A stretch of 64,000 nt of DNA from Eledone cirrhosa (lineage: Eukaryota): positions 241,986,001 to 242,050,000 of the forward strand of contig OZ024743.1 of NCBI GenBank assembly GCA_964016885.1. Direction: 5' to 3'. Position 1 is the stretch's first letter, and every line of letters starts with the position of its first letter. The notes under the pieces are model-generated. The model was not told where the DNA came from. It saw only the letters and a program-made list of their open reading frames with translations, and did no database searches. Of this stretch, positions 59,783 to 60,743 are shown piece by piece. The position numbers were made by a program, and so were the translations under genes.

Positions 59783-60743
59783 AATTGATGAGCAGAACAA
59801 ACAAACATTAAACAATCCTTTAAATAAATTAAAAAATAATTTAAATATTTACCTGTTCATAATGCTATTAGCGGCGGTTTCCATCCACAAAAGATTGGAA
59901 ATTCGGAGAATTTCAAACGGAAAGTAGATTTCTTCAGATAGCTATTTCCATTCTATAGGACATTTGTCCCACGGTCAGCAAATATAATGCTAACTACCAG
60001 CACGTATGGGCTATAGCCGTTAAAGTGACCCGTACGTGACCTGGCCACTAGAGCAAGCGGGAATATTATAGACTTGTTGATGAACAGGTAAATATTTAAA
60101 TTATTTTTTAATTTATTTAAAGGATTGTTTAATGTTTGTTTGTTCTGCTCATCAATTTTTATAGTTCTGGTATCTCGAATTAGTACCATAGAACAACAAT
60201 TATATTGTAGACACCCTATATATCTCAGTGTGTACATAGTACTCAGTGAGATATTTACCTCATTTTTATATATTCTCCAATCTATGTGGAGAAAAAATTC
60301 GTTGTTGCTTACTGCTATTTTTTTAGCAGCCAAGCCATCAACAAGTCTATAATATTCCCGCTTGTTCTAGTGGCCAGGTCACGTACGGGTCACTTTAACG
60401 GCTATAGCCCATACGTGCTGGTAGTTAGCATTATATTTGCTGACCGTGGGACAAATGTCCTATAGAATGGAAATAGCTATCTGAAGAAATCTACTTTCCG
60501 TTTGAAATTCTCCGAATTTCCAATCTTTTGTGGATGGAAACCGCCGGTAATAGCATTATGAACAGGTAAATATTTAAATTATTTTTTAATTTATTTAAAG
60601 GATTGTTTAATGTTTGTTTGTTCTGCTCATCAATTTTTATAGTTCTGGTATCTCGAATTAGTACCATAGAACAACAATTATATTGTAGACACCCTATATA
60701 TCTCAGTGTGTACTTAGTGCTCAATGAGATATTTACCTCATTT
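59783..60743 (+). mobile_element. Partial-tandem (478-bp unit) + inverted 5' segment hammerhead element in (TA)n
   Basis: 60080-60265 repeated at 60558-60743; 59783-60082 is the reverse complement of 60336-60635. Confidence 0.85.
60476..60554 (+). ncRNA. Type I hammerhead ribozyme with long stem II (mirror copy 59864-59942, minus)
   Basis: GCTAT-CTGAAGA-A ATCTAC [internal GAAATTC/GAATTTC hairpin] GTGGAT G-GAAA-CCGCCGG-TA-ATAGC. Confidence 0.82.

Follow-up and report, generated by a model that had tools for sequence, protein, structure and literature searches.

A hammerhead-bearing non-LTR retrozyme family with two (TA)n-bound 3' sites in Eledone cirrhosa, probably copied off both strands of one break by a PLE

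The insertion at positions 59783-60743 of the window, by which we mean the whole 64,000-nt stretch of Eledone cirrhosa contig OZ024743.1 analysed here, is best explained as a non-LTR retrozyme with two (TA)n-bound 3' sites, derived from an RNA that was likely circular and was copied off both strands of one break by a PLE RT/endonuclease likely of the Neptune type, a reading to which we give a probability of roughly 0.7. If this is correct, a tandem copy with two hammerheads would be transcribed, self-cleaved to a monomer and ligated to a circle, and the PLE enzyme, probably as a dimer, would nick both strands of a (TA)n tract. One 3'-OH would prime at a fixed site A and the other at a fixed site B, probably on the same RNA and aided by the UAUA in which both sites end, and each cDNA would run back round the circle, displacing what is ahead of it, to a variable stop that is often near the hammerhead. 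The two cDNA ends would then anneal by 1-8 nt and repair would complete a head-to-head insert, which in the window copy would comprise a B-primed arm of 664 nt and an A-primed arm of 300 nt.

Repeat comparison bore out the tandem 478-bp unit, the inverted copy of about 300 bp and the ATG overlap at 60080-60082 that an initial annotation of this DNA had described. The direct arm is 664 nt long, or 1.39 units of 478 nt. With unit positions numbered from 60080, it consists of one full turn of a non-coding unit (60080-60557, + strand), starting 8 nt downstream of the hammerhead cut point, and a partial second turn (60558-60743, + strand) that holds unit 1-186 and ends at the fixed site B; 60080-60265 and 60558-60743 are direct repeats with a period of 478 and 3 mismatches (60236, 60241 and 60246). 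The inverted arm (59783-60082, - strand) is a 300-nt inverted copy of 60336-60635 with 2 mismatches (59871 and 60053), running from unit 257-260 over the hammerhead cut point to the fixed site A (unit 78), and the two arms meet head to head, 5' to 5', at the ATG microhomology (locus L001 in our mapping). Within turn 1, site A lies at 60153-60163 and site B at 60259-60271 (both + strand), each a putative RT start, and the 108-nt "tail" between sites A and B (60636-60743, + strand) is present at the site-B end of the insertion and absent from the end of the inverted arm. The target is a microsatellite, (TA)51 at the site-A end of the inverted arm (59682-59783) and (TA)27.5 at the site-B end (60743-60797), inside which target-site duplications are unreadable. 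Farther out, 57718-59375 is a minisatellite in which 53 copies of a 27-nt unit are bordered on either side by 36-nt variants, and local duplications lie to the right of the element (60797-60951 / 61429-61584 and 61615-62134 / 62265-62774, at a spacing of about 632-650 nt).

Each arm carries a single hammerhead and the partial second turn carries none. The initial annotation's description of the element as young stands in a moderate sense, with copies inside the element diverging by 0.7-1.6% but the nearest other genomic copies being 97-98% identical. The unit is AT-rich and non-coding: the sole ORF of at least 120 aa wholly inside the element (59953-60366) had one sub-threshold Pfam match, and no RT + GIY-YIG ORF was found in the element. 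In size, base composition and lack of coding content it agrees with the criteria for non-LTR retrozymes, which are a non-coding unit of about 150-450 nt (51-972 in a 2026 preprint), a GC content below 50% and no LTR, PBS or PPT. An assembly artefact, or a local duplication of satellite or palindrome type, is a scarcely credible source of this arrangement. The element does lie between long (TA)n tracts, and contigs from three sequencing runs of one sample cover all 30 of its bins with no contig spanning it, but the copies within it differ at 2 and 3 positions, and this architecture is found again, with junctions that differ, at dozens of unlinked loci and in several diverged families.

The type I hammerhead of the direct arm (60476-60554, + strand) was found by inspection and a descriptor scan. 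Stem I pairs 60476-60480 with 60550-60554 (GCUAU/AUAGC) and is followed by the core CUGAAGA (60481-60487), a 49-nt stem II region (60488-60536) made up of an A.G mismatch, a 6-bp basal helix and a 10-bp apical hairpin, the GAAA at 60537-60540 and a stem III of 3 bp (60540-60542/60546-60548); the predicted cut is after GUA, between 60549 and 60550. An upstream palindrome, GAAAUAGCUAUC, was rejected as a candidate for stem III because no core lies before it. Rfam gave no match at the gathering threshold in the whole window and, at E<10, only (TA)n artefacts in 59600-61000. Its covariance models likewise missed minimal hammerheads elsewhere in the window, and the failure on the unit's hammerhead is probably due to the long stem II. 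The minimum-energy fold of the isolated ribozyme pairs the CUG of the core and does not form stem III.

Variation among genomic copies offers a further view of this fold. In 71 family copies, of which 54 have an intact hammerhead by our criteria, core letters vary at 8 of 781 places (1.0%), as against 88 of 1562 (5.6%) for unpaired letters outside the core, and paired letters vary at 2.0%; the core consensus is CUGA(A/U)GA, position 7 (A or U) being the only common change within it. A sister family replaces an A-U pair of stem I by G-C and has rewritten the basal stem II sequence with its pairs kept. Among 49 distinct hammerheads, chosen by a pattern that left stems I and II unspecified, stem I position 2 is G-C, A-U or U-A and the basal pairs of stem II interchange among C-G, U-A and A-U. 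Pairing in this set is 90% for stem I and 87% for basal stem II, compared with 83% and 59% for shuffled partners, and the observed values were reached by none of 2000 partner shuffles, a statistic that ignores relatedness. By this comparative modelling, the hammerhead is real as a structure, with stems that covary across sister families, and self-cleavage of the unit RNA is predicted.

Across the 3.0 Gb of this animal genome, the exact 16-nt cut-site motif of the 478-nt family occurs 236 times, and a looser hammerhead pattern covering the clan (the family and its sister families) has 1,343 matches, with 0 in reversed controls. Five identity-ranked searches, a sample biased to long copies, gave 79 distinct elements mapped from 150 loci, and a position-ordered sample of 30 matches gave 23 elements, one of them already among the earlier ones. 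Three successive subfamilies are visible, and within an element, turns and arms are almost always of one subfamily. The sister family is 71-78% identical, with a period near 459. Several other diverged families (L259-L308) carry the same long-stem hammerhead and have 3' ends about 80-93 or 173-206 nt past the cut.

The 5' ends of family copies are scattered all round the unit, and wherever a copy extends upstream of unit position 1 it is unit position 478 that precedes. This supports the possibility, raised in the initial annotation, that other copies start at different points of the same circle; the origin from a circular or multimeric hammerhead RNA and the PLE-style structure that it had proposed are supported as well. 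It is very improbable, by comparison, that the unit is a mere pseudo-LTR of a coding PLE and its copies are 5'-truncated stumps. All PLE hallmarks are present, as such an origin would lead us to expect, and GIY-YIG PLEs are abundant in the genome, but upstream of the unit, the 79, 23 and 26 mapped elements have either further unit sequence, an inverted arm or flank of unrelated sequence. No common non-unit sequence was found upstream in the 79 elements checked for it, so the colinearity with a longer coding element that the initial annotation had named as the contrary outcome was not observed, and no join of unit to ORF occurs among the copies examined. In the one copy that adjoins an ORF (L182), (TA)n lies between the two. 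Past site B, moreover, the unit enters its own 276-nt body, where the tandems of a Neptune-type family in this genome enter the element's 5' region and ORF.

The flanks of single-armed copies are asymmetric. At least 8 nt of TA adjoin the 3' end in 39 of 43 such elements; shorter tracts were found at 17 of their 5' ends as opposed to 4 of their 3' ends, and the median tract is 36 nt at the 3' (priming) end versus 12 nt at the 5' end (P 0.02). Either target deletion or the addition of TA by slippage on the UAUA sites could explain the longer 3' tracts. At three loci (L017, L028 and L051), the insertion is bracketed by inverted duplicates of 150-220 nt of flanking DNA, perhaps with another palindromic element as target.

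The 3' ends of 118 arms fall into two main groups, 66 at site A (unit 74-90) and 47 at site B (unit 180-200), with 5 arms ending elsewhere. The two sites, 108 nt apart in the window copy and located about 86 nt (A) and 194 nt (B) past the cut, are both U-rich and UAUA-ending, and both are unpaired in the predicted circular fold of the unit, which has an energy of -132.5 kcal/mol and a z of -7.5 against 40 approximate dinucleotide shuffles. Head-to-head inserts combine one site with the other: 30 of 35 in a first set are A+B and 5 have one odd end, and with ten further inserts (9 A+B, 1 odd) the total comes to 39 of 45. The position-ordered sample has A+B in 7 of its 8 two-armed inserts and the sister family in 8 of 9, the ninth being odd. 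No A+A or B+B insert was found among the 45 of the 478-nt family or the 9 of the sister family, and under a coin-flip null 39 A+B out of 39 would have a chance of about 2e-12.

That the two ends are never at the same site suggests that both primers lay on one RNA, with two RNAs in an asymmetric complex as a possible alternative. In L1 twin priming, two target ends prime on one RNA and give an inverted segment joined by microhomology; the internal site at which the second primer lands varies, and there is hardly any overlap between the two segments. The inserts described here resemble that process in the priming of one RNA by two ends, the inverted segment and the microhomology join, but differ in having two fixed sites and arms that are repeated copies of one sequence.

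The pairing of A with B also bears on how the inverted arm arose, which the initial annotation had ascribed to a template switch. Such a switch, whether by fold-back onto the first cDNA or by antisense self-priming, and with the second end trimmed by endonuclease, would be akin to the self-priming or fold-back origin proposed in PMC3846280, and we regard it as improbable here. It would sit well with the nesting of 19 of the 30 A+B inserts, the window copy included (14 with the A arm within the B arm, 5 the reverse), with the microhomology at junctions (an overlap of 1-8 nt in 26 of 35 head-to-head inserts) and with the rare variants that arms share at 15 positions. On the other hand, in 11 of the 30 neither arm contains the other (about 9 clearly, two being marginal), and non-nested arms are impossible for a fold-back copy of the first cDNA; near-symmetric junctions (offset at most 40 nt) number only 8 of 30, about chance level; and both ends are fixed and never at the same site, the inverted arm of the window copy having its own fixed 3' end at site A. 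The inverted arm is thus best read, as seems likely, as a second primed cDNA. Inspection of the 478-nt family by hand showed no evident surplus of B arms that stop exactly at site A (2 of 39).

Whether these cDNAs were primed on a circle or on a linear RNA is a separate matter. Arms longer than one unit number 39 of the 118, in a sample biased to long copies, whereas a linear monomer produced by cutting could template no more than about 90 nt from site A or 200 nt from site B, given their distances of about 86 and 194 nt from the cut. The cut point is crossed seamlessly, indels starting there in 1 of 104 passes. Subfamily-diagnostic changes and 4 rare variants are common to successive turns, for which a monomer stage is needed. 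Identity within elements (96.9% between turns, 97.6% between arms) is not above that to the nearest other copy, which was equal or higher in 36 of 84 comparisons, and 69 within-element differences fall on common family alleles.

A 13-kb head-to-head insertion of the sister type (G000:C1:156425696-156438634; L289 and L290), with a period of 457, comprises an arm of 19 turns with its end at A and an arm of 9 turns with its end at B. Among its 26 complete units 17 are identical, with 14 differences overall, and two variants absent from the nearest other copies are fixed in all units of both arms, one of them present in 28 of 28 turns and in 0 of 17 other copies. Scattered over the two arms, 6 of the 28 turns have a T>G change just past site B (194G), which none of 13 matches elsewhere shows. 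The B arm has its 5' end exactly at site A, as in L221 and L222. Near-identical turns with shared private variants in both arms are what rolling-circle copying predicts, although post-insertion growth or misassembly could also have produced this array. That both (TA)n strands prime on one circular RNA, round which the PLE RT then rolls up to 19 times in a double rolling-circle target-primed RT, is a tentative reading that we put somewhat short of an even chance.

A linear template would keep the same family and the two-site priming but replace the circle by uncut or partly cut tandem read-throughs, with RT jumps, and by arrays formed later through unequal crossover. A lizard PLE uses unprocessed RNA in vitro, its hammerhead being dispensable (PMC11167929), and the window copy's two turns differ in haplotype. 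The 5' ends pile up at the cut point, with 25 against 9.6 expected at unit 461-12, a 2.6-fold enrichment (P 2e-5 for one of 16 bins, with an approximate correction for its selection) that fits linear templates ending there as well as it fits RT stalling at the ribozyme. Two-hammerhead copies, found in 7 of the 79 elements and as 8 direct hammerhead pairs genome-wide, are possible linear masters, but the 478-nt family has no three-hammerhead array that could act as a long one. The seamless joins at the cut point and the variants carried through successive turns, with the monomer stage that they need, also count against linear templates, as does the 28-turn insertion, in which private variants are shared across arms and 194G is scattered and not block-wise. 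On balance we consider a linear template unlikely and retain the circular RNA as the likely template.

The window copy itself would make a poor master. The initial annotation had singled it out as the best candidate for an active element, but with one hammerhead per arm it cannot release a monomer. Both its hammerheads carry G424U (60503 in the direct arm), a change seen in 1 of 31 aligned rows that weakens the apical part of stem II and shifts the fold energy from -21.7 to -15.1 kcal/mol; the hammerhead of the inverted arm (59864-59942, - strand) also carries G468C (59871), which breaks a stem III pair and turns the GUA triplet into CUA. In a plus-strand read-through, the ribozyme is predicted to be buried in a 300-bp hairpin. 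The shared G424U ties both arms to one source. A single circle as the template of this copy is in doubt, as its two turns differ at three linked sites: turn 1 has the haplotype 157A/162A/167G, also found in L008, and turn 2 the common 157T/162G/167A. Judging by these letters, its template was probably not one monomer read twice, and the mix suggests that the template was heterodimeric, that copying switched from one RNA to another or that gene conversion followed. It is likely a dead-end insertion. Tandems with at least two hammerheads, absent from the window copy, are present in the family (and reach 19 turns in the sister family), and the seven two-hammerhead elements, L003, L009, L012, L019, L020, L030 and L033, are better master candidates; no trimer was found in the 478-nt family genome-wide.

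If a PLE supplies the enzyme, then the genome offers no shortage of sources, with 10,596 GIY-YIG PLE candidates, of which 150 were scored. One of these loci (L182:2776-5019) encodes an RT, a CX4CxxC motif and a GIY-YIG, a combination given as the Neptune/Nematis signature in PMC8557442, and its family ends in (TA)n. At L182:6095-6137 lies a minimal hammerhead with a U3-A8 variant core (UUGAAAA), of a type described in PMC4209133, with a GAAACCGGUA end; a similar one is present in L175. The end of this family resembles the unit in layout and end motifs, with the order variant hammerhead, site A, site B, the two end sites being about 65 nt apart, and its inverted inserts are A+B in 4 of the 4 with both ends at sites (L234, L242, L245 and L247), from a query selected for B ends and with four other two-armed loci having one end elsewhere or out of view. 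The window holds a truncated copy (52469-55359, - strand), 86-88% identical to L182, and a second short end piece faces it at 52220-52333 (+ strand). The unit has no significant nucleotide similarity to the L182 family, local alignments not beating shuffles, and no significant match to the other fetched GIY-YIG loci (47 in all, of the 10,596 candidates). The Neptune ORF of L182 was also considered as the parent of the sister-family copy that adjoins it and was rejected, as a (TA)n tract lies between them and no alignment rose above shuffles. This family is an architectural analogue of the unit and not a proven partner, and by that analogy the mobiliser of the 478-nt family is likely a Neptune-type PLE.

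Hammerheads of other kinds also occur in the window. Identical minimal hammerheads form a head-to-head pair at 13157-13195 (+) and 13043-13081 (-), and since the 13157-13195 motif also follows GIY-YIG ORFs in L180, L184, L185, L190 and L192, it is the end piece of another PLE family. More candidate minimal hammerheads, most with a palindromic stem III, lie at about 16057-16121 (-), 31274-31337 (+), 38562-38624 (-) and 32929-32993 (-), and broken LINE-like ORFs at 6151-8555 (-) have RT and apurinic endonuclease matches below curated cut-offs.

Metazoan non-LTR retrozymes have been described by Cervera and de la Pena in 2020 (PMC7229834) and by Li, Clavereau and Pollet in 2026 (10.64898/2026.07.22.740005). 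In these accounts their circles were detected by northern blot in coral, mussel and axolotl, and copying of the circles by PLEs was proposed and not shown. The 2026 preprint takes tandem copies with at least two hammerheads as its criterion for "active" elements, and 8 of the 9 predicted elements reported there did not cleave. Our unit shares with metazoan retrozymes, as these papers present them, a non-coding, low-GC unit that is a few hundred nt long and contains a single type I hammerhead, the formation of tandems, a highly self-paired predicted circle and the presence of autonomous PLEs in the same genome. Compared with what their main texts describe, it differs in its dispersed (TA)n inserts of mostly less than 2 units, its two fixed 3' ends and its head-to-head arms, and further in its 49-nt stem II region, missed by Rfam.

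The likeness to EN+ PLEs, as characterized in PMC3846280, PMC8557442 and PMC11167929, extends to 5' truncation, partial tandems, a head-to-head inverted arm, a tail at one end, microsatellite targets and two RT start sites that lie downstream of a hammerhead. A PLE protein assayed in vitro nicked and extended the two strands, with RT starting at two internal sites that define the tail (PMC11167929). For the lizard element, RT start lies 111-118 nt into the ORF and the cut at 26, thus about 85-92 nt apart, similar to the 86 nt or so between the cut and site A here; its start sites lack homology to the cut DNA, whereas those of our unit end in UAUA, like the target (PMC11167929). Relative to the three published accounts, the unit also lacks an ORF, its tail is 108 nt as against 30-40 nt, the A+B pairing has been counted and arms reach many turns. 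Chlamys MRC1, as reported in PMC8557442, is likewise a non-coding PLE passenger with pLTRs and multicopy head-to-tail insertions, but it is algal, has 3' similarity to an autonomous family and belongs to a clade mostly without canonical hammerheads, whereas no parent of the 478-nt unit was found among the loci compared.

Retrozymes, a proposed PLE-driven circular cycle, the one-end tail of inverted pLTRs and the two internal RT start sites are therefore already in print in these sources. We found no description of the A+B rule, of non-nested arms or of a multi-turn head-to-head retrozyme insertion in the literature searched, which lay mostly outside subscription papers and supplements; two supplementary figures, Fig. 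S2 of PMC11167929 and Fig. S9 of PMC7229834, may be relevant. How PLEs form tandem and inverted structures, and why they favour microsatellites, is described as open in PMC8557442. The unit provides a sub-500-nt RNA substrate for the existing in vitro assay (PMC11167929), and its hammerhead is of a form that escapes Rfam and has more than 1,300 matches in the genome.

The window copy is thus an ordinary and probably inert product of a clan that bears on two linked questions, the copying of retrozyme circles by PLEs and the origin of the tandem and inverted structure of PLEs, and that gives countable rules for both in the A+B pairing, the non-nested arms and the 28-turn insertion with its private variants. 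If double rolling-circle copying holds, it would be a direct showing that animal retrozymes spread via their circles, and the PLE "tail" and inverted pseudo-LTR would consist of one cDNA primed at A and another primed at B. On that reading, the T>G change scattered over 6 of 28 turns would record a base of the single template, possibly modified, that was misread repeatedly.
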